This document shows, piece by piece, positions 4,474 through 35,436 of a DNA stretch of 35,668 nt. Within the stretch, counting starts at the first letter, position 1. Each line of letters starts with the position of its first letter. Source of the DNA: a virus (Duplodnaviria; Caudoviricetes). The stretch spans positions 1-35,668 of IMG/VR virus record IMGVR_UViG_3300026187_000042; one strand, 5' to 3'. The notes under the pieces are model-generated. The model was not told where the DNA came from. It did no database searches and saw nothing but the letters and a program-made list of their open reading frames with translations. A program made the translations under genes and the position numbers.

Positions 4474-4887
4474 ATGAGAGATATAGAATACATAGTTATT
4501 CATTGTGCGGCAACAAAGCCATCAATGGATGTTCCAATTGAGCGAGTTAGAAAATGGCATTTAGATAGAGGTTGGTCAGACATTGGTTACCATTACTATA
4601 TTACAAGGGATGGAAAAATTCATAATGGTAGAGATTTAAGTATTGTTGGTGCGCACGTTAGCGGATATAATAAAAACAGTATTGGAATATGTTATGAAGG
4701 CGGCATAAATGAAAAAGGTGATCCGGAAGATAACAGAACAGATGAACAAAAGAAATCATTGCTTAAAGTTGTTAAGATTTTAAAATTTGTTTTTAAAAAT
4801 GCAGTTGTTCAAGGTCACAGAGATTTTCCAAATGTTAAAAAAGCGTGTCCATCATTTGATGCTAAAAACGAATACAAAAATATATGA
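4474..4887 (+). CDS. Endolysin, N-acetylmuramoyl-L-alanine amidase (Amidase_2, T7 lysozyme-like)
   Basis: Motifs IVIHCAAT, IGYHYYI, GAHV, SIGICYEGG, GHRD, KACPSF (Zn ligands H/H/C). Confidence 0.95.
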   Translation: MRDIEYIVIHCAATKPSMDVPIERVRKWHLDRGWSDIGYHYYITRDGKIHNGRDLSIVGAHVSGYNKNSIGICYEGGINEKGDPEDNRTDEQKKSLLKVVKILKFVFKNAVVQGHRDFPNVKKACPSFDAKNEYKNI

Positions 4888-5354
4888 GAGAAAAAGGAAG
4901 ATTAAAAAAGTGGCTAAAAGATAACGGAAAAAACGCATTAGGGAACGTTTTAGACACAATTGGCGAAAATACGTCTATACCTATTGCAAGTAAATTAATT
5001 GAGGGCATAGGCGAATCTTTGATGGATGATAAAAAAATAAGTGAGGAAGATAAAAAAGAGATTGCTAAAATGATAGAATTTGAATTAAGGGAATTAGAAA
5101 TTCTTGAATCAAATTTAACTGAACGCCACAAAAATGATATGCATAGTGATTCGTGGATGTCAAAAAATGTTAGACCAATAATACTATTGTTCAGTTGGTT
5201 TTTATTAGTCCTTATGATGGTTTTTGCTTGGTTTGACAAATCTTTACCATCAAATTATGTTTCGCTATTCGAAACACTTTCTTTGGCTGTTACAGGTGGT
5301 TATTTCGCATTAAGGACTGTTGAAAAAAGAAATTCAAAAAAATATAATAAATAA
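4884..5354 (+). CDS. Putative holin (GTA 3TM-holin-like)
   Basis: Next to the endolysin; DSWMSKNVRP motif, two hydrophobic segments and a basic C-terminal tail. Confidence 0.7.
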   Translation: MREKGRLKKWLKDNGKNALGNVLDTIGENTSIPIASKLIEGIGESLMDDKKISEEDKKEIAKMIEFELRELEILESNLTERHKNDMHSDSWMSKNVRPIILLFSWFLLVLMMVFAWFDKSLPSNYVSLFETLSLAVTGGYFALRTVEKRNSKKYNK

Positions 5355-5365
5355 CAATATTTGAT

Positions 5366-5373
5366 TATATTTG
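5366..5373 (+). promoter_or_regulatory. Bacteroidota-type -7 promoter element (TATATTTG)
   Basis: Matches TAnnTTTG; no + strand ORF lies between it and the terminator at 5434-5463. Confidence 0.55.
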
Positions 5374-5378
5374 AAATT

Positions 5379-5463
5379 AAATAAATTTATTCTGATTGTT
5401 TTTTAGTAAATTTATTTCTCTTTATCATAGCTTCCTCCATCCTTAATTGGGTGGAGGTTTTTT
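5379..5463 (+). ncRNA. Candidate small RNA antisense to early-gene start sites
   Basis: Promoter, 11-bp hairpin (5379-5389/5407-5417), linker containing TCATAGCTT (reverse complement of AAGCTATGA), then an intrinsic terminator. Confidence 0.45.
5434..5463 (+). terminator. Rho-independent terminator ending the late/lysis operon
   Basis: CCTCCATCC-ttaatt-GGGTGGAGG stem followed by T6. Confidence 0.85.
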
Positions 5464-5513
5464 GTTTATCTCAGGGCATAAATAAAAAAAAATAATTTTT
5501 TTTCATTTTTTTA

Positions 5514-5546
5514 GTTGTTTATTAATATATTATATATATATTTGTA
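5514..5546 (+). promoter_or_regulatory. Early promoter, TTG-N19-TATATTTG
   Basis: TTG 5515-5517 and TATATTTG 5537-5544; 30/33 identical to 11306-11338. Confidence 0.8.
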
Positions 5547-5580
5547 ATGGCAATAAAGCTAACAACTAAAAAAAAGCAAA

Positions 5581-5751
5581 ATGACAACTACAATGACACC
5601 AACAGGAGAACAAGTAAAATACGAAAACAAAAGAGTATTTAATATTTACTCAAAAATGACAAAAAGTGGAATGCGTTTTTATCGGTATTCAAGAGGGCGG
5701 TTTTTCCCAATATCAAAAACGGAAATAAACGAAAGAATATTTATTAAATAA
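5581..5751 (+). CDS. Small basic hypothetical protein (56 aa, MTTTMTPTGEQVKY...ERIFIK)
   Basis: Read by hand; first gene after the promoter; preceded by the conserved TAAAAAAAAGCAAAATG leader. Confidence 0.7.
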   Translation: MTTTMTPTGEQVKYENKRVFNIYSKMTKSGMRFYRYSRGRFFPISKTEINERIFIK

Positions 5752-5798: not shown

Positions 5799-5817
5799 AA
5801 AATTAAAAAAAAGCAAA

Positions 5818-6363
5818 ATGAAAAATTTATTCAAAAGTTTATCTGCATTTCAAACAGAAGTGCCAACAATCCACAAAGGAACAAAAGGTTATGGTTACAG
5901 TTATGCTTCATTGCCTGAAATCTTTACAGTAATCAACCCATTGTTAAAAAAACACGGTTTAGGGTTCACGCAATTATTAAATTCTGATGAATCAGGTGAT
6001 TGGATCAAAACAATAGTTTATCACGTTGATTCCGGAGAAAATATTGAATCATTAACACGAATTCCAAAGGCAGCATTAAAAGGTCAAAATGAATATCAAG
6101 CATTCGGTTCAGGTTGCACATATTATCGTAGGTATTCAATAAGCTGCATTTTGCGTTTGGTAACTGATATTGATAATGATGCAGCAGATATAAAGAAACA
6201 GCCAAATGTATCAACAAAAACTAATGTTGAAAAAAAGCCAATAAGCAATGAAAGGTTTTCAAAAGCATTGGAGCAAATTAAAAAGGGTAACGCATCAATT
6301 GAATTATTAATTGATACATTTAACTTAACAAATGAACAAAACAAACAAATTGAAAAGCTATGA
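5818..6363 (+). CDS. erf: ERF-family single-strand annealing recombinase
   Basis: GYGYSYASLPEI, PLLKKHGL, QAFGSGCTYYRRYS, DIDND motifs. Confidence 0.9.
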   Translation: MKNLFKSLSAFQTEVPTIHKGTKGYGYSYASLPEIFTVINPLLKKHGLGFTQLLNSDESGDWIKTIVYHVDSGENIESLTRIPKAALKGQNEYQAFGSGCTYYRRYSISCILRLVTDIDNDAADIKKQPNVSTKTNVEKKPISNERFSKALEQIKKGNASIELLIDTFNLTNEQNKQIEKL

Positions 6364-8500: not shown

Positions 8501-8876
8501 AGTAGTCACTGAAAGCATATTAAACAAAGATTACGAAACAGCATTAAGGTTCATTGAATTAGAAATGCAGCCCAAAACATTGCCTAAAAACTTTGAAGAA
8601 AATGTAATCAATACGGTTTGTTCTTATTGCAAAATAACTAAGTTAGAATTGATAAAACCCACAAGAAAAAGAGAAAATGTGGATGCAAGAAAAATGGTGT
8701 CTAAAATTTTAAGAGATAAAAATTATACATTTTCTCAGATTGGTAAAAAATTAGGTAGAAAAGATCATTCATCAATTGTGTATTATTGTAAAAATGCAAA
8801 CAATTTAATTAAGACTGATAAGGTTTTTAGAACATCTTATGAAAATATTCTTGAAATTATAAACCAAAAAAACTAA
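8478..8876 (+). CDS. DnaA C-terminal HTH-like DNA-binding protein
   Basis: TRKRENVDARKM...TFSQIGKKLGRKDHSSIVY resembles DnaA domain IV. Confidence 0.75.
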   Translation: MTEEYLIKVVTESILNKDYETALRFIELEMQPKTLPKNFEENVINTVCSYCKITKLELIKPTRKRENVDARKMVSKILRDKNYTFSQIGKKLGRKDHSSIVYYCKNANNLIKTDKVFRTSYENILEIINQKN

Positions 8877-8880
8877 AGCT

Positions 8881-9486
8881 ATGGCACAGGGAAAAAAAAC
8901 ATTTATTTTTTATTCAGATTGGATTAATATGGTCCGTGAAATGCCTGATAAAGATGCCGGTGCATTGTTGAAACATATTTTAAGCTATGTTAATGACGAA
9001 AACCCACAAACAGACAATCTATTAGTTAAAATGGCTTTTGGACATATGAAACCATTGTTAAAATGCGATTTGGATAAATGGGAAGTTATTAGAAATAAAA
9101 GAAAAATTGCGGGTAAAAAAGGTGGTCAAGCAAATGCTAAGCAAAAGGAAGCAAATGCTAAGCAAACCGAAGCCGTAAATGATAATGTAAATGTAAATGA
9201 TAATGGTAATGTAAATGAAAATAATAATAAGGGTGTTCCAACCTTTGATTTATTCTTATCTCACGCAAAAGAAAAAGCACAAAGAAAAAATATTATTTTA
9301 GACGAAAAAAAGGTTAAACAAAAATTTGAAAGTTGGTTGGAGAATGGTTGGAAAGATTTAAATGAAAGACCAATAAAAAATTGGAAGGTAAAGATTACAT
9401 CTAATTTGCTATATTGGGAAAAAAATAAATCGGTTTTAACTGATGATGGATCAAAGAGAAATAACTATTTAAAAGATGTGCTATGA
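8881..9486 (+). CDS. Replication initiator-like protein (DUF6291-type N-terminus)
   Basis: KKTFIFYSDW N-terminus, AGKKGG, repeat linker, C-terminal NGWKD...IKNWK; directly upstream of the primase-helicase. Confidence 0.75.
   Translation: MAQGKKTFIFYSDWINMVREMPDKDAGALLKHILSYVNDENPQTDNLLVKMAFGHMKPLLKCDLDKWEVIRNKRKIAGKKGGQANAKQKEANAKQTEAVNDNVNVNDNGNVNENNNKGVPTFDLFLSHAKEKAQRKNIILDEKKVKQKFESWLENGWKDLNERPIKNWKVKITSNLLYWEKNKSVLTDDGSKRNNYLKDVL
9128..9230. repeat. Putative replication origin (iteron-like repeats plus AT-rich hexamer run) inside the initiator gene
   Basis: AAGCAAATGCTAAGCAAA at 9128-9145 and 9149-9166, then GAAGCCG and degenerate (TAAATG)n. Confidence 0.6.
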
Positions 9487-11279
9487 ACAAATTTATTGAT
9501 TGGGAGAAATTAGAATTTAAAAAAACATCGGGAAGGGAAAAATTAAGATGCCCAAATTGTGATGAAATTAGAACAGATAAAAAAGATAAGGCATTAGTCA
9601 TATATCACAATGATGGTGTTGGAAAATGTTTTTATTGCGAATCATTAACATTTCGTGATTCAGGTGAAACAGATTATTCACAAAAGCAATATAACATTCC
9701 ATCACAAAGTTGGAAAAATTACACACAGCTTTCAGATAAATTAATTAAATGGGTTGAGGAAAGCCGAAAGATTAGCCAAAGTGCATTGATTGATTTAGGG
9801 GTTACTGAAGAAGTATTTTACCAACCAAAACACAAGAAAGAAATTAACAATATTGTGTTTAATTATTTTGAGGGTGAAAAATTAGTGAACAAGAAATACC
9901 GGTCAGCTGATAAATCATTTACGCAAACGCAAGGTGGTAAACCAATATTCTATAACATAAATTCCGTTATTGGTCAGGATGAAGTTTATATTGTTGAAGG
10001 TGAATTTGATGTTTTGGCTTTGCGTTCACACGGGATCAAAAACGTAATAAGCGTTCCAAATGGCGCAAATGATAATGACGAATATTGGAAGAATTCGGAA
10101 AAGTATTTAAAGGATATTCAAAAATTTATAATTGCAGTTGATAATGATGAAAAAGGTAAAGCATTAAAAGAAAAAATTGCACAGCGTTTGGGAAGATGGC
10201 GTTGTGATTATATCAATTGGTCAGAAAAAGATGCCAATGGTTCACTAATTGCCAAAAAGATTGATTTTGATTTATCAAATAGAAAAAAATTTCCTGTAAG
10301 TGGTACGTTCACATCACTTGATTTAAAAGATGGAATATTTGATTTATACAATAACGGTTTACCGGAAACAATTTATCCAAAAAACAGTTGTTTTGGCAAT
10401 TTTAAGAAGATATTTTCAATTATGCGTGGTCAATTAACCGTTGTCACAGGAATACCATCACACGGTAAATCTTCATTTGCTGAATGGCTTTCTTTAAACT
10501 TGATTAATGATTATGATTCAAAACTTTCAATGTTTTCACCTGAACATTCACCAATGCCATTGCATCAAACAACTTTAATTCAAAAAGCCGTTGGTAAGCC
10601 ATTTTGGAAAGAAATAGATGGCAGAGCAAGAATAACACCAAACGACATTGAAAGATATATAAATTGGTCAAAGGAAAAGATTTATATTACATCACCTGAT
10701 AAAAATGATGCGCCAACGTGGGATTGGATATTTGAAAAATTTAAAGAACAGATGTTTGCTTTTGGGATTGATATTTTTATTATTGATGCGTTTAATAAGG
10801 TACTATTACCAAGTGGAAACAAAAAAGATAGTATTGATGAGGTTTTAACCCGTTTAACAGCTTTTGCACAGCAGAACAATGTAAGCGTTTGTTTAGTTGC
10901 ACATCCAACCAAAATGCAAAAGGATGAAAAAGGGAATACAAGAATCCCAAATTTATATGATGTAAGCGGCTCGGCAGATTTTAGAAATCAAACGCATAAT
11001 GGTTATGCAATCCACAGATTTTTTGAATCAGAAAACCAAGAACCATTCACAAGATTTGTAAACCTAAAAACTAAATTTCAATTTCAAGGTGAAATAGGTG
11101 GCAACATAGATTTTTTATATGATCTTCCAACCGGTAGATTTTACGCAAAAGGTCAACCAATACCAACATTTGATATGACATTATCAGATGAAGTTTTTGA
11201 ACAATCAGAAATTAAATCACTAAGCCCAAATGAAGATTTTGATTGGATAAATGAACCTTCCAACGAGATAAATTTTTAA
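9483..11279 (+). CDS. Primase-helicase (T7 gp4/Twinkle-like)
   Basis: Zn finger CPNC...CFYC, TOPRIM VEGEFD and DND, Walker A GIPSHGKS, IIDAFN, LVAHPTK, YDVSGSADF. Confidence 0.93.
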   Translation: MNKFIDWEKLEFKKTSGREKLRCPNCDEIRTDKKDKALVIYHNDGVGKCFYCESLTFRDSGETDYSQKQYNIPSQSWKNYTQLSDKLIKWVEESRKISQSALIDLGVTEEVFYQPKHKKEINNIVFNYFEGEKLVNKKYRSADKSFTQTQGGKPIFYNINSVIGQDEVYIVEGEFDVLALRSHGIKNVISVPNGANDNDEYWKNSEKYLKDIQKFIIAVDNDEKGKALKEKIAQRLGRWRCDYINWSEKDANGSLIAKKIDFDLSNRKKFPVSGTFTSLDLKDGIFDLYNNGLPETIYPKNSCFGNFKKIFSIMRGQLTVVTGIPSHGKSSFAEWLSLNLINDYDSKLSMFSPEHSPMPLHQTTLIQKAVGKPFWKEIDGRARITPNDIERYINWSKEKIYITSPDKNDAPTWDWIFEKFKEQMFAFGIDIFIIDAFNKVLLPSGNKKDSIDEVLTRLTAFAQQNNVSVCLVAHPTKMQKDEKGNTRIPNLYDVSGSADFRNQTHNGYAIHRFFESENQEPFTRFVNLKTKFQFQGEIGGNIDFLYDLPTGRFYAKGQPIPTFDMTLSDEVFEQSEIKSLSPNEDFDWINEPSNEINF

Positions 11280-11941: not shown

Positions 11942-11977
11942 ATGTGTTTTTAATAACGATTAACTAAAAACAAGATT

Positions 11978-14351: not shown

Positions 14352-14371
14352 CACACATATTTTAAAAAGCT

Positions 14372-14659
14372 ATGAAAGACGAAAAACTATTATTATTTAG
14401 TTTATTTTTAACATCTGCATTGGCAGATACATTAGATGATATTTCAAACCAAAATTATTTTGTTAAAGATTTTAAAAAAAAAACGAATCAATATAGAGAA
14501 TTTTTAAAAAATAAAACATTTAAATTGTTAAATGATTCATACGAAATTGATCCTGAATTTTTTGAATTAATTGATACATCTGTTACAAATGCAGCTATTG
14601 AATCAGCTAATGAAACATTTAAATGTCTTTTTGAATTAGATAATATTAAAAAAAAATAA
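14372..14659 (+). CDS. Hypothetical protein
   Basis: 95 aa; AAAAAGCTATG leader. Confidence 0.65.
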   Translation: MKDEKLLLFSLFLTSALADTLDDISNQNYFVKDFKKKTNQYREFLKNKTFKLLNDSYEIDPEFFELIDTSVTNAAIESANETFKCLFELDNIKKK

Positions 14660-20701: not shown

Positions 20702-21526
20702 ATGCAGTTAAACATCAACGGAAAGTCTTTTGAAATCAATTCAGAAGAATTAAAAAAAGCATTGGAAAGTGATGCACCGTCATTTGACGTTAAGTCAGAT
20801 TTGGTTATTAGAACAGGTGAGGAAGAAGAAACCTATACATCTAACTTGCGCAAAGAAGGAACAACAATTGGTGCTGAAATAGGCAGAAAAGAGTTGTTAA
20901 AATCTTTAGGCATTGAGGGAGAAGGTTTACACAAAAGTGATGAAAAAGCATTGGAAAGCATTAATGAATTAATTTCATCAAAAGTTAATTCAGAACTTGA
21001 AGGTGCAAAGATAGAACCAAACAAAAAGGTTGCCGAATTGAATAAAGATTTGGAACAAATGAAAAGCACATTGTTAGAAAAAGAATCATTGATTAAAAAT
21101 TTGTCAAATGATTTTTCTACTTACAAAAAAAATCAAACCATATCTTCAAAGGTTGCCGAATTGATTCCTGACAATACTGTTATTCCAAAAAAATCAATAA
21201 TGAAATTGATGTTGGATGATATTAAATTGGATGTCAATGAAAACAATATGATTTACGGAATTGGCGAAGATGGTCAACCATTAAAAGATGAACATTTGAA
21301 TTTATTGGGTGCTGATAAAATTGTTACAAGTTATTTTGATGCAAACCCACATTATTTAAAATCTGCAACAGGTGGTGCGGGTGGTTCTGATAGTTCAGGT
21401 GGATCATCAAAACAATCATTGGAAGCTTTCACAAAAGAAATGATGGATGCCGGCCATTCACCAAATAGTGAAGGATTTAATCAAATAATGACTGAAAGAA
21501 TCAATTCAGGAACATTAGATTTATAA
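20702..21526 (+). CDS. Putative capsid scaffolding protein
   Basis: Acidic coiled-coil, G/S-rich linker (GGAGGSDSSGG) and a short C-terminal domain; head-module position. Confidence 0.65.
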   Translation: MQLNINGKSFEINSEELKKALESDAPSFDVKSDLVIRTGEEEETYTSNLRKEGTTIGAEIGRKELLKSLGIEGEGLHKSDEKALESINELISSKVNSELEGAKIEPNKKVAELNKDLEQMKSTLLEKESLIKNLSNDFSTYKKNQTISSKVAELIPDNTVIPKKSIMKLMLDDIKLDVNENNMIYGIGEDGQPLKDEHLNLLGADKIVTSYFDANPHYLKSATGGAGGSDSSGGSSKQSLEAFTKEMMDAGHSPNSEGFNQIMTERINSGTLDL

Positions 21527-21619: not shown

Positions 21620-21652
21620 ATTGTAGAACAATATATTTTATATATATTTGTA
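21620..21652 (+). promoter_or_regulatory. Early promoter, TTG-N19-TATATTTG
   Basis: TTG 21621-21623 and TATATTTG 21643-21650; T-tracts upstream. Confidence 0.8.
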
Positions 21653-21674
21653 GTGAACATTAAAAAAAAGCAAA

Positions 21675-21917
21675 ATGAAACTACAAGCGCAAGAAGTAAA
21701 GCAAGGAATGGAAGTAAAATTTGGATGGAATCAATGGCTTACTGTTGAATCAATAGAAATAGACCACCAAAAGAACGGCAAAGAGTTAAGAATTTTTAAG
21801 GGTAGTTCTAAACAAGAAAAACCAACAAGAAGAGGAGCAAGAAAATATCCAACAATAGTTCCTAATAAAAATGATTCTTATGTTTGTAAATCGACTACAA
21901 AATTAGATGTGAGATGA
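21675..21917 (+). CDS. Hypothetical basic protein
   Basis: 80 aa; conserved TAAAAAAAAGCAAAATG leader. Confidence 0.7.
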   Translation: MKLQAQEVKQGMEVKFGWNQWLTVESIEIDHQKNGKELRIFKGSSKQEKPTRRGARKYPTIVPNKNDSYVCKSTTKLDVR

Positions 21918-21944
21918 AAAAGAAGCTAACTAAAATTCACCATC

Positions 21945-21973
21945 GCCTCGAACCATAATCGGTTCGGGGTTTT
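21945..21973 (+). terminator. Intergenic hairpin (weak terminator or processing site)
   Basis: GCCTCGAACC-ataatc-GGTTCGGGGT followed by TTT. Confidence 0.6.
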
Positions 21974-22013
21974 GGTAGTAACAAACATTAAAAAAACAAA
22001 AAAAACAGAAGCT

Positions 22014-22229
22014 ATGAATATGAGTTATTGCAGATTCCGAAACACAAGTTTAGATTTACAAGATTGTATTGATGCGATCAACAATGGTGAAATAAATGAT
22101 TTATCAAGAGATGAGCAACAAGCGTTTGTTAACTTAATAATGCAATGCAAGGAAGTTGCAGAAAATTTTGAAGATTATGATGATTACGAATTAGAAGATT
22201 TTATCAAAGAACAACAAGAAGAAATTTAA
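22014..22229 (+). CDS. Small acidic protein (MNMSYCRFRNT...)
   Basis: Start moved to the AAGCTATG at 22014; about 19 D/E versus 5 K/R in 71 aa. Confidence 0.7.
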   Translation: MNMSYCRFRNTSLDLQDCIDAINNGEINDLSRDEQQAFVNLIMQCKEVAENFEDYDDYELEDFIKEQQEEI

Positions 22230-22252
22230 TTAAACAACTAAAAAAACAAGTT

Positions 22253-22579
22253 ATGAAAAATTCAGTAAGAGAAGAATTATTAGATTACGCAAAAGAACAA
22301 ATTTTAGATTTAGGTTTAGATTTAAATGATGATGATTTACACCATAAATTGTTCAACGAAGATTACTACATCATTGGGTATTATAACGCATCAGAATGGC
22401 TCAAAAAACATAATATCGGTGAATTTGAATCTGTTAATATGTTGGAAGAACTTCATTCTTGGCATTTTGGGGAAAATACAGAAGTTTACAAAGATGCTGA
22501 AAGAGTTGTCAATATGTTAGTTTACTTTTATGGGTTTGAAATTGTTGAAGAATTAAAAGAACTTTCAGGTGCGGTTTGA
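22253..22579 (+). CDS. Acidic protein, possible Ocr-like DNA mimic
   Basis: 108 aa; about 24 D/E versus 9 K/R; DDDLHH...YYIIGYY. Confidence 0.5.
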   Translation: MKNSVREELLDYAKEQILDLGLDLNDDDLHHKLFNEDYYIIGYYNASEWLKKHNIGEFESVNMLEELHSWHFGENTEVYKDAERVVNMLVYFYGFEIVEELKELSGAV

Positions 22580-23000
22580 AACAAATAAAGATTTACAAAA
22601 TGAATTGGATGCCATCACATTATATTGTGAGGTGTTCAATTCATCTTTTGAAAAGTTAGGTGAAAATGACATTGATTACAGGGTGACAAAACCAAACAGA
22701 ATTCAACACATTGAGGTGAAAGGTAGAAACCGGAAAATTGAAAACGCATTTCCATTACCAATTGCTGCAAGAAAGGTTGTCAAGTTGGTTGACAAAAAAA
22801 CAGAACCAATTGTTATTTGGAATTGTTTTGATGGGTTAATTATATGCGATCTAAGCAGCGTAAAATCATCCGGATATATTAGTGGGCGTAAACCAAGAGA
22901 AGGTTCTGCAAATGACGTAGAATATATGTTATACTTTGAAAAGCAAGATAATTTTTATTGCATCAAAAAGTATTCAAAAAAAATATTTAAACTTTTTTAA
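22569..23000 (+). CDS. PD-(D/E)xK nuclease-fold protein
   Basis: E...DIDY...HIEVKGR motif. Confidence 0.65.
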   Translation: MRFETNKDLQNELDAITLYCEVFNSSFEKLGENDIDYRVTKPNRIQHIEVKGRNRKIENAFPLPIAARKVVKLVDKKTEPIVIWNCFDGLIICDLSSVKSSGYISGRKPREGSANDVEYMLYFEKQDNFYCIKKYSKKIFKLF

Positions 23001-23007
23001 AAAAAAG

Positions 23008-23040
23008 CGATTTAGTAGTATATTTTATATATATTTACAT
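23008..23040 (+). promoter_or_regulatory. Variant early promoter (TATATTTA)
   Basis: GTATATTTTATATATATTTAC resembles 21630-21650; lies before ATG 23054. Confidence 0.5.
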
Positions 23041-23053
23041 AAAATTAAAAGCT

Positions 23054-23629
23054 ATGAAAAAGTATCAAACATACAGCGATTACAAAAACCAAGCGTTCAC
23101 ACCTGAAAAAATGCAATCTGATGCGGTTCTTTTTGTAAAGAAATTAATGCCAACATTTTGCGATTCTTGGATAAATCAAGTTGAAGAACAAAGTGATGAT
23201 TTAAAAGGTATTAAATTTCAATTCAATGTTAAGTCTGAAACAATTCACGTTATCAAATTAGGTGGGTTTTTAGGTGATTGGGATTTGTTTTTAAACAAGA
23301 AAAGAATCAACAAAAGTGATTTACAAAATTACCTTGAAAAAAAATATATGACAGGGTTGGAAATTTTCTGCAAATATGTAATGGGTTACAACTTTCATAT
23401 AAATATGTTAGAATACAAAGGTGATTATGCTAAGGCAAGTGAAAGAAATAAAAACATTGAGAGCATTTTTGCCGGTTTAAATGATCAAGATAAAGCAAAA
23501 GCGATTGATTTTATGAATAGCGTTTTTGGAGAAAAATTGACAAAAACAGTGTTTTCAAAAAATGGTGAAACAAGAGATCAATTATTAAAAGAATTAAATG
23601 AATTAAATAAAATATACAGCTATGAATAA
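23054..23629 (+). CDS. Hypothetical protein
   Basis: 191-aa ORF. Confidence 0.7.
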   Translation: MKKYQTYSDYKNQAFTPEKMQSDAVLFVKKLMPTFCDSWINQVEEQSDDLKGIKFQFNVKSETIHVIKLGGFLGDWDLFLNKKRINKSDLQNYLEKKYMTGLEIFCKYVMGYNFHINMLEYKGDYAKASERNKNIESIFAGLNDQDKAKAIDFMNSVFGEKLTKTVFSKNGETRDQLLKELNELNKIYSYE

Positions 23630-23804
23630 GGAAGAACAACTTCAACAAATGATTGACCAATGGAATGAAAAATTTGATTTAATGGTCAGAGAAAGAAACT
23701 ATTGGCGTGACAGATGTTTAAAAGCCACAAAGGAAACAAATGATATGCAAGATTCAATTGAACGGTTAAAAAATCAAGTTTACAACCTATCAAAAAGGGG
23801 TTAA
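23622..23804 (+). CDS. Small coiled-coil protein
   Basis: 60 aa, heptad-like; overlaps the upstream stop. Confidence 0.65.
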   Translation: MNKEEQLQQMIDQWNEKFDLMVRERNYWRDRCLKATKETNDMQDSIERLKNQVYNLSKRG

Positions 23805-23907
23805 GCATTTGCTTTATTTTGCTAAGCATTTGCTTCTATTTGCTAAGCAAGTGGAAGCCGTAAATGTAAATGTAAATGTTAATGTAAATGTAAATGTAAA
23901 TGTTAAT
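23802..23907. repeat. Non-coding origin-like element: 21-bp-period repeats plus (TAAATG)n
   Basis: TAAGCATTTGCTT at 23802 and 23823, TGCTAAGCA at 23820 and 23841, GAAGCCG, then about 8 TAAATG/TTAATG hexamers. Confidence 0.85.
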
Positions 23908-23946
23908 AAAAAATATTTGAAAAAAATTTAAATTGAAAAATTTTAT

Positions 23947-23994
23947 TATATTTGCATTCGGAACTGTGTTCCAAAGTCTCAGGAGTGGTACTCC
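23947..23994 (+). promoter_or_regulatory. Capsid-operon promoter and two small leader hairpins
   Basis: TATATTTG 23947-23954; GGAAC-tgt-GTTCC 23960-23972; GGAGT-ggt-ACTCC 23982-23994. Confidence 0.6.
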
Positions 23995-33631: not shown

Positions 33632-35436
33632 TAACGGTTATCAATATGACATTAAATGGTATTCCAATTTCAACGGTCAGGGGATTGGATGGTTTAGAAT
33701 TAAATGCTGTTTACGATATAAGCCCACGAGCATCAATAAATTTAGATTCAGTTGTTTTTTGCAATAGTGATAAATCAAAAAATAGTGATATTTTAAGGGC
33801 TGCTCATGATGCGTTACCAACAGAAGGTGCATTATTTGAATTTGAAGTTACTGATTTTGTAAATTCGTATCCGTTTAAATTTATCTGTGATTACAATAGG
33901 TATAAAATTTTGTCACCAAGTGAAACAGAAGTTGGTTTATTTTTAGAAGATTCAGATAATTCATTAATTCAATATAGGGGTGCTGATATTAATATGGCTT
34001 TTTTAGAAGATGCCGGTTATTTAAATTCAACACATTATGTTAATTTCCCTTATATCGTTAAAAACAGAAAAACAAATTTAGAAAAGATACAATTATTATC
34101 AATCACATTCACGACAACAAAAACACTTTTTGATGAAGTTTTTAAATTAATTGGCATTGCAACCGATATATCAACAGTACTTGGTTCAGCTTTAGGTCTG
34201 ATTAATTTAGCGCAAACATTGTTTGCTTTATCACTTACTGTTGTACAATTGATACAATTAATAAAAGAAGCGAGGGAAACATTTGTTCCCCCAATCAGGT
34301 ATCATTCAGCAATTTCATTAAAAAATTATTTAACACAAGCGTTTAATTATTTAGGGTATTCAGTTGATTTTGGAACGTGGGCTGAAAACCCAATATTAAT
34401 ACCATCAAAATCAGATGAAATTGGATTAACAACGCCTGAAACAACATTGGAACAAAGCGGTATATTAAAACCAAATAATTTTGGGTATAATTTATCAGAA
34501 GCGATTGAATTAGCTTTAAGGTTGTGCAACGGTGAAATAATGATAAAAGAATCAACCGTTCATTTAAGACCAAAAAGTGATCCATTTTGGATTTTAGATG
34601 CGGGTTATATTATGCCCGACACATTAATTGAACAAAGCGTTTTAGAAAATAATGGTGAAAGGCGTTTAAACCGTGAGGATGTTTATGCCGGTAAATCATT
34701 TTCATATGAAACTGATGATTCTGACAGGTGGACAATACAAGATGCGGCAGATGGCGCAAATGGGAACAGAAGGCACACAGTAATTGTTGAACCAATCACA
34801 ACAGTGAACACAAAAAGAGTTAATTTAAACGGGTTTAAGGAAATTAAAATACCATATTGCTTAGTTTCAAGGAAATATTTAGTTGATGAAATAATTGATA
34901 AAATTATTCCTGATCTTGAAATTGGGTTGTTTGATTTGCGTGAAACAGTTAAAGAAACATTTGAATTATACTCAGACGAATTAACAGAAACATTTCCAAT
35001 ACTTGAAACGTTAGGTTCTTATGTTTTATCTAGGGATGGCGCATTAAGAGTTGAAAATCATTTTTTTACAAAGCCTAAAATTGGCATTTTAGAGGGTGGA
35101 AGTTTTGGAAGGTATTTAATACCTGAAGATTTCAATGATAAAATAGGTGCAAAAGCCATTTACAACAAATATTACAGTTATGATTCGTTGGTTGAGGGTG
35201 TTAGAAATCCATTAGACACAAATGATACAAATGGAAAAGAAGTTTTTGAAAATGTAGAATTTCAATTTAATATAAAAGATTTTTCACTAATTTTGAATAA
35301 CGCATATTTTACAACTGAATCGGGTAAATTAGGAAGATATACAGCATTAAATTGGAAAGTTTTAAGTGATAAAGTCACAGCCAATTATTGGGTTCAAAAA
35401 AATTGGTTGATAAATTCTGAAGAAAAAGAGGTATGA
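33628..35436 (+). CDS. Putative tail/virion protein
   Basis: 602 aa; ATGA overlap with the tape measure gene; internal hydrophobic helical stretch. Confidence 0.6.
   Translation: MITVINMTLNGIPISTVRGLDGLELNAVYDISPRASINLDSVVFCNSDKSKNSDILRAAHDALPTEGALFEFEVTDFVNSYPFKFICDYNRYKILSPSETEVGLFLEDSDNSLIQYRGADINMAFLEDAGYLNSTHYVNFPYIVKNRKTNLEKIQLLSITFTTTKTLFDEVFKLIGIATDISTVLGSALGLINLAQTLFALSLTVVQLIQLIKEARETFVPPIRYHSAISLKNYLTQAFNYLGYSVDFGTWAENPILIPSKSDEIGLTTPETTLEQSGILKPNNFGYNLSEAIELALRLCNGEIMIKESTVHLRPKSDPFWILDAGYIMPDTLIEQSVLENNGERRLNREDVYAGKSFSYETDDSDRWTIQDAADGANGNRRHTVIVEPITTVNTKRVNLNGFKEIKIPYCLVSRKYLVDEIIDKIIPDLEIGLFDLRETVKETFELYSDELTETFPILETLGSYVLSRDGALRVENHFFTKPKIGILEGGSFGRYLIPEDFNDKIGAKAIYNKYYSYDSLVEGVRNPLDTNDTNGKEVFENVEFQFNIKDFSLILNNAYFTTESGKLGRYTALNWKVLSDKVTANYWVQKNWLINSEEKEV

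Follow-up and report, generated by a model that had tools for sequence, protein, structure and literature searches.

A conserved promoter-terminator unit in a flavobacterial-type phage and its possible role as a late RNA directed at tagged start codons of early genes

What could be the function of a short unit that lies between the lysis genes and the recombination and replication genes of a phage, carries its own promoter and terminator, and mirrors the translation starts of genes up to 18 kb away? This question is raised by the 35,668-nt stretch of DNA analyzed here in its entirety (hereafter, the window), a complete circular phage genome of ~35.5 kb of the Flavobacteriia type with a 139-nt terminal repeat, ~31% GC and nearly all genes on the + strand. 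The amidase and holin genes (4474-5354, + strand, PHROGs) close the late operon, and its last gene, the holin (4884-5354, phrog_3427), ends 11 nt from the promoter box of the unit. They are followed, according to PHROGs, by genes for ERF, exonuclease, SSB, an Arc-like protein, NinG and primase-helicase, with DnaA-C (8478) and DUF6291 (8881) recognized in addition by Pfam; terminase, portal, capsid and tail genes lie downstream of this block. Among the 52 proteins of the genome, PHROGs matched no integrase or CI-type repressor, only the Arc-like gene. Because the best relatives of the primase among cultured phages infect Cellulophaga and Flavobacterium, and because operons are preceded by TAnnTTTG boxes, the host is probably a flavobacterium.

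The preliminary description of this locus read positions 5366-5463 as a promoter box, a hairpin, a linker and a terminator, and all these coordinates held upon re-analysis. The Bacteroidota sigma-A -7 box TATATTTG (5366-5373, + strand) is found in a late-type context, i.e., with an A-tract upstream and without the early AATATA..TA extension. Given the reported position of this box in flavobacteria (-12 to -5; PMC9723704) and the location of the U run, an RNA of ~86 nt (5378-5463) is predicted. It would start with a 13-bp hairpin with a U-rich loop (5379-5417; arms 5379-5391 and 5405-5417, with 11 Watson-Crick pairs, then one G-U and one further pair), continue with a 16-nt linker (5418-5433), predicted to be unpaired with a probability of ~0.9 or more from 5419 on, and end with an intrinsic terminator (5434-5463; stem 5434-5457, U run 5458-5463) that is likely common to the unit and the lysis (amidase-holin) mRNA. 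The fold has a z-score of -4.6 and was matched by none of 200 shuffles. The earlier statement that the + strand contains no open reading frame here is correct for ATG starts but not beyond, since there is a TTG-started frame of 16 codons (5396-5446). A scan of 5300-5600 against Rfam yielded four weak matches, all far below the gathering score and none of them to C4. The CUUCCUCC stretch, which resembles an anti-Shine-Dalgarno sequence, was rejected as such because it belongs to the terminator stem and is not conserved in homologs. Contigs from four DNA runs differ at 0-1 positions across the holin end and the unit, compared with 2-4% in the ERF gene; because the holin end is equally invariant, this constancy is weak evidence with regard to the unit itself.

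The linker contains a seed (5425-5433) that is the reverse complement of AAGCTATGA, and this is the single such complement in the 35.7-kb genome. AAGCTATGA itself is present in four copies on the + strand, every one at a gene start (6355, 14367, 22009, 23049), so that the mirror relationship between one linker and four starts claimed previously is exact. A 9-nt perfect duplex over the AUG is predicted for the exonuclease (tag 6355-6363, start 6360), and perfect duplexes of the same length for a 95-aa gene (tag 14367-14375, start 14372) and a 191-aa gene (tag 23049-23057, start 23054). The 10-nt match that had been described at a 71-aa gene (start 22014) is real as well, with its position corrected from 22009-22017 to 22008-22017. 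The shorter matches also stand, namely, 8 nt at the DUF6291 replication-initiator-like gene (tag 8876-8883, start 8881), 8 nt at a 60-aa gene (tag 23618-23625, start 23622) and 7 nt at the primase-helicase (tag 9480-9486, start 9483), all perfect duplexes. A wobble version, AAGTTATGA, is found at a 108-aa gene (22248-22256; 9-nt duplex including one G-U). All these tags are on the + strand, and the 60-, 71-, 95- and 191-aa genes have no assigned function. Three of the seven perfectly tagged genes lie between the scaffold and major capsid genes, in a group of early-type genes (21643-23804) that has two promoters of the early class; the equivalent place in the syntenic phage G001 is occupied by other genes.

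The core of the tag, GCT directly before the ATG, is present at 7 of the 27 early starts and at 0 of the 26 late starts (Fisher p = 0.006), the two classes having been assigned by position and function after the tags had been seen. Thus, the observation that structural genes are devoid of this start context is borne out, and 20 of the 27 early genes are untagged as well. In the window, GCT precedes only 3 of the 793 ATGs that are not starts. The GCT-ATG combination is found in 7 of the 49 called genes of the window, compared with 5 of 315 called in a single Flavobacteriaceae genome that is not known as the host of this phage (20 stretches, together 400 kb of its 4.5 Mb), and with 7 of the 1070 genes of 42 further phage loci of the Bacteroidota-like type, where two of the seven come from a close relative. 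The tags are unaltered in the close relatives L001 and L002. Efficiency of initiation is unlikely to account for the tag because, in Flavobacterium johnsoniae, A is favored at -3 and an A-to-G change at this position reduced the expression of one reporter by 70% (PMC6847099).

With accessibility taken into account, the energy of pairing with the unit RNA averages -5.8 kcal/mol for early starts and -3.5 kcal/mol for late starts (p = 0.0035), a contrast that was matched by 0 of 28 shuffled RNAs. The seven tagged starts range from -9.3 to -12.4 kcal/mol, and one late gene, at 35433, pairs well too, via G-U (-11.1 kcal/mol). The -9 kcal/mol level is reached by 7 of the 27 early starts versus 1 of 157 starts in the same Flavobacteriaceae genome. 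Three non-coding terminators were found in the window, and only the sequence preceding that of the unit matches starts: 9 of 49 genes are matched at 7 nt or more, compared with 0 and 0 for the other two. The early-late contrast in energy appears to be partly generic because most of the tested U-rich unit RNAs favor early over late starts, in foreign genomes included. The perfect duplexes are short, 7-10 nt. The proposal that the hairpin loop is a second seed is not upheld: both leaders invoked (near 11963 and 22237) are off by one A, the pairing amounts to only -3 to -6 kcal/mol, and the loop is not conserved, the hairpin sequence and loop size being variable among homologs (4 nt in G001). Separately, a strong hairpin at 21945-21970 has in its loop region the sequence CATAATC (21954-21960), a mirror of the GATTATG present at two starts, 11723 and 11978; this match may be due to chance or may represent a second seed.

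The promoters of the window and of G001 fall into two classes that have a common -7 box and different upstream sequences. Early-class promoters (5537, 7754, 11329, 21643 and 23030 in the window) carry the AATATA..TA extension and, in most cases, TTG near -33; the one at 5537-5544 (+ strand) opens the recombination and replication region. In contrast, the packaging, portal and capsid promoters have an A-tract and no TA, and the window promoters of this other class are found at 5366, 15110, 18670 and 23947. The TA before the box is present in 9 of 9 early promoters, in 0 of 6 late ones and in 0 of 12 unit promoters (that of the window and 11 others). The late class may require a phage-encoded activator. 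Because the promoter of the unit is of the portal/capsid type and the unit is placed at the end of the lysis operon, this arrangement suggests that its RNA is expressed late in infection.

On the strength of these observations, we propose, with a probability of about two in three, that the unit encodes a late trans-acting RNA that masks the tagged start codons of early genes. Under this proposal, a small RNA is made from its own promoter, probably late, and the same RNA end may additionally arise as the 3' end of the lysis mRNA, through the common terminator. The linker, predicted to be single-stranded, would anneal in trans over the AUG of the tagged early mRNAs, and this cover is predicted to block translation of the exonuclease, the initiator-like protein, the primase-helicase and the four genes without assigned function. 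The likely purpose would be to halt new initiation of replication and recombination once packaging begins. In the absence of Shine-Dalgarno sequences that could be masked, the start codons themselves would carry a short tag, presumably at the cost of a G at -3, which is disfavored by flavobacterial ribosomes. Transcription, late timing, pairing in the cell and repression are all features that we infer from the sequence.

Units with the same organization are not confined to this genome. A unit comprising a promoter, a short body and a terminator follows the holin in six of the eight closest metagenome loci (L122, L123, L126-L129), the remaining two having the amidase next to the holin. It is also present 3' of the holin in G001, and L242 has the seed and the terminator after the holin without a promoter box of its own. 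Most homologs retain the promoter box just upstream, and their seeds are CATAGC, CATAAT, CATAAC, CGTAAT or CATAGT, L126 being seedless. The unit at 5366-5463 is therefore a real, conserved feature, even though its proposed function is putative. Further units were recovered in an ERF-based survey covering 80 loci and ten near-complete genomes, and the site of the unit is the late-to-early boundary in most genomes checked, unrelated phages included. In 4 of the 10 near-complete genomes, a second anti-start copy is found 3' of a virion gene of 186-187 aa, and in G066 the stretch after this gene is the sole seeded unit; these stretches in the 3' UTR (G065 13242, G066 10941, G068 4977, G070 11982, G071 15769) are followed by a terminator and have no promoter box. 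In the cultured Cellulophaga phage phi19:1 (KC821607, L327), a promoter-terminator unit on the minus strand near 20943 is antisense to the early region, and the body of this unit is a mirror of AAC-rich leaders, with matches at 10 of 87 starts compared with 3.9% in foreign genomes. In OP947161 (L320), a two-seed unit (~2391-2470) matches 28 of 73 starts at 7 nt or more. This record is deposited as a Rhodobacteraceae phage, yet it has 29% GC, Bacteroidota-type promoter boxes and AT-rich start contexts, so the host label may be wrong.

Blastn against cultured phages did not match the unit; single-protein viral scans returned no loci for the holin and two for the exonuclease, neither of which reaches the unit; and a scan of bacterial genomes with the holin gave six weak loci only. 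The promoter-gap-seed pattern was found in 119 loci, chiefly by chance, with a clear terminator in L003 and L043, and a scan with the linker pattern (37 loci) recovered only the L043 record again; the same pattern has 5 matches in 4 of 61 Flavobacteriaceae-family genomes. Genes were called by a simple ORF rule that missed two of the three GCT starts on the L003 minus strand. A seeded unit was looked for and not found in tooticki6-1, Arctus_1 and MW202710, and P12024L and tant8-1 have units without CAT after the lysis genes and no clear match in their own leaders. A further family (L139, L261, L265, L270) combines a TATATTTA box, the seed TTTTCATGTTAG and a terminator, with AAC-ATG at 3-4 of 19-37 genes versus 3.5% in foreign genomes. 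L367 (near 6958), L420 (near 75) and L422 (near 276) have an additional, longer promoter-terminator unit that shows no anti-start match, possibly representing another family of small RNAs.

If the seed recognizes the tag, seeds should follow tags across lineages, as the preliminary description suggested, and in some lineages they do. L242 has a CATAGTT seed, and AACT-ATG is its top start context (6 of 32 genes). In the clade of G065, G070 and G071, the seed is (C/T)ATAGCG, and CGCT-ATG is present at 3 of 47, 6 of 52 (four distinct) and 6 of 46 genes, respectively, compared with 1 of 728 genes in other clades; one leader in this clade is matched perfectly over 15 nt. In the clade of G067, G073 and G074, CATAAT seeds co-occur with AGTT-ATG tags, with pairing via G-U. 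The RNAs of the window, L242 and L320 each fit their own genome best, and the window RNA reaches -8 kcal/mol or better at 7 of 27 early starts of its own versus 0 of 18, 2 of 17 and 1 of 61 foreign ones. Conversely, the complement of the tag plus AT was found in the terminator-proximal region of the same genome in 5 of 11 tagged genomes versus 12 of 183 foreign comparisons (p ~0.001), although these five represent only three of nine clades, the window being one of them, or four of nine if G-U is allowed.

There are also exceptions. The seed is retained in G001, the closest of the diverged relatives, but GCT-ATG is present at 0 of 42 starts in its record, which is of 70% completeness, the initiator and primase genes being among those missing; the G001 RNA reaches -8 kcal/mol or better at 9 of 27 starts of the window versus 2 of 18 of its own, where the matches, including that at the exonuclease start (G-U), require G-U or bulges. 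G072 has CGCT tags and a mismatched seed, and five tagged clades show no correspondence. A strict permutation based on architecture only, with the window left out, gave p = 0.048 (n = 10 units); a control permutation on regions without a promoter gave p = 0.09 (n = 31, some missed units among them); and a value of p = 0.001 was obtained with units added after their match had been seen. A junction-match statistic was dropped because ordinary terminators exceed the foreign rate as well. Given the clade exceptions and the borderline permutations, co-variation appears to be genuine in certain lineages but is not established as a general rule. The original idea that one seed RNA addresses many early starts is supported by the enrichment of the tag, the conservation of the unit, the matching of seeds to tags and the failure of the mini-gene alternative (see below), and is weakened by these exceptions, by the shortness of the duplexes, by the 20 untagged early genes and by the well-pairing late gene at 35433, repression itself being deduced. 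The broader generalization, that the early-to-late switch in phages of Flavobacteria is widely operated by a late anti-start RNA, with a lineage-specific barcode on the early start codons and a matching seed at the end of the late operon that evolve by paired changes, as a self-addressed translational regulon in place of Shine-Dalgarno masking, is in our judgment a matter of even odds.

Several other explanations have to be weighed against a late RNA that masks early starts. The unit could be a mere terminator or 3' UTR of the late operon, with the tag read otherwise and the mirror produced by chance or as a by-product of U-richness. RegA of phage T4 is a phage RNA-binding protein, and a protein of this kind could read such a tag. 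A terminator is expected after a holin gene anyway, U-rich stretches generically pair with A-rich leaders, several tagged genomes have no matching unit, and G001 has no tag. We nevertheless consider this explanation unlikely given that the only reverse complement of the 9-mer falls within the 16 unpaired nucleotides of the linker, that the correspondence between seeds and tags, both of them rare, recurs in independent clades and that the promoter box is kept upstream in most homologs. Action in cis, whereby late read-through transcripts would fold the seed onto downstream starts and so insulate the early genes, would fit the late-to-early boundary and the frequent tagging of the next gene (L123, G065, G070, G071). 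It is made very unlikely by the weak pairing of the next two genes of the window (-4.7 and -3.7 kcal/mol), by tagged genes up to 18 kb off, beyond other promoters and terminators, and by L003 and phi19:1, where the unit and the tagged genes are on opposite strands. The CATAATT seeds of some homologs match the commonest context in the Flavobacteriaceae genome, AATT-ATG (20 of 315 genes), which might point to shut-off of host translation through common start contexts. However, with GCT starts and strongly pairing starts as rare as they are in that genome (5/315 and 1/157, respectively), such a function of the window RNA is hardly probable at all.

The RNA, produced in an infected or carrier cell, might instead be aimed chiefly at superinfecting related phages, whose early mRNAs it would silence, with self-targeting being secondary; the fit of the G001 RNA to the early starts of the window and of L242, better than to its own, agrees with such exclusion, and the C4 RNA of P1 serves immunity (PMC5320573). 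Yet the window retains seven perfect tags despite their cost in start strength, with no sign of escape, the tags are unaltered in L001 and L002, and no integrase or CI-type repressor was recognized by PHROGs, all of which renders exclusion as the main role quite unlikely. Finally, the preliminary description itself named the case that would explain the motif trivially, a translated mini-gene on the minus strand for which the motif is the start context. A 13-codon frame does begin at 5428 on that strand, behind GGAGG. This explanation fails because the frame is not conserved: homologous frames have 13, 10, 35, 35, 4, 11, 7 and 6 codons, with no relatedness among the encoded peptides, the frame is shifted in G001 although the DNA is kept, and the start is ACG in L127. 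The CAT-to-CGT change seen in L127, L420 and L422 destroys the minus-strand start and keeps G-U pairing to the AUG. Furthermore, the nearest minus-strand promoter box is at 5805, and Shine-Dalgarno pairing is reported not to operate in these hosts (PMC6847099), so that we regard the mini-gene as extremely unlikely.

Small regulatory RNAs are familiar in phages, the antisense RNA sar of P22 being an example, and the candidate late masking RNA shares features with several described systems. Its mode of action would resemble that of GibS, a trans-encoded seed sRNA of Bacteroides thetaiotaomicron, which is reported to form its own transcription unit and to place a single-stranded seed over the start codon of the target, with repression in a phylum that does not use Shine-Dalgarno sequences (PMC7366714); for the phage unit, the same is proposed from sequence. 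At this level, the unit has its own promoter and terminator, no ATG coding frame and a seed, predicted to be single-stranded, that is the complement of start regions far away in the genome. GibS differs in being bacterial, with two start-region targets shown and a long 5' seed in that account (PMC7366714), whereas the seed of the phage unit is 7-10 nt long, precedes the terminator and finds its tag in many starts of the same genome. No Hfq is known in the Bacteroidota according to the same source (PMC7366714), which counts against the proposal. The C4 antisense RNA of P1 and P7 is likewise a phage RNA of ~77-86 nt that acts in trans near translation starts, but it is described as having three stem-loops, a cut by RNase P, pairing through loops and a role in lysogenic immunity (PMC5320573). 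The phage unit, by contrast, has two hairpins, a seed in the linker and many targets in the replication region; with this different structure and no C4 match in Rfam, identity with C4 was rejected.

The lambda RNA PreS (LPR1) is described as a multi-target phage small RNA with an unpaired seed but, unlike the putative RNA studied here, acts mainly on host mRNAs and depends on Hfq, and OOP of lambda is antisense to a single mRNA; in this account neither reads a start-codon tag common to the early genes of the phage itself (bioRxiv 10.1101/2024.10.31.621285). An OOP-type cis-antisense action was rejected for the unit, which is on the same strand as all its targets, 0.9-18 kb away from them, and would form duplexes of 7-10 nt. 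The closest parallel to the tag is provided by the start-associated sequences of Cluster K mycobacteriophages, which also mark starts of non-structural genes in one orientation, the reader, RNA or protein, having been left open by the authors (PMC3203893). Those are 13-bp, Shine-Dalgarno-like sequences located 3-7 nt before the ATG, with no partner RNA in the available description (PMC3203893); the window tag has no such 13-bp repeat or core, consists of 3-6 nt, abuts the ATG and has its mirror within a promoter-terminator unit. In the literature searched, mostly non-subscription articles, we found no description of a phage RNA that reads start-codon tags on early genes of the same phage. A related motif could be contained in the motif tables of RNA surveys (e.g., PMC2864571). 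The unit would thus represent a kind of trans-acting sRNA with features unreported in that literature, its function being assigned from sequence features.

To our knowledge, the shut-off of early genes in Bacteroidota phages is poorly described. If real, the mechanism proposed here would be simple, a short RNA covering the tagged starts of a whole class of genes, in hosts without Shine-Dalgarno initiation or an obvious Hfq. RNA, in place of a repressor or an anti-sigma factor, would then operate a temporal switch of the phage, and programmable silencing of Bacteroidota genes could be modeled on this natural arrangement. Deposited phage genomes, that of phi19:1 among them, already contain candidate units.

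Two observations on repeats were made in passing. A viral contig of 460 kb (L023) contains tandem 40-nt repeats with internal inverted symmetry at ~9900-10150. In the window, iteron-like repeats located within the initiator-like gene (9128-9227) recur at 23804-23912 (82% over 72 nt, plus inverted copies), in an intergenic region directly before the capsid promoter at 23947, where they might serve as another origin or as an initiator site coupling replication to late transcription.
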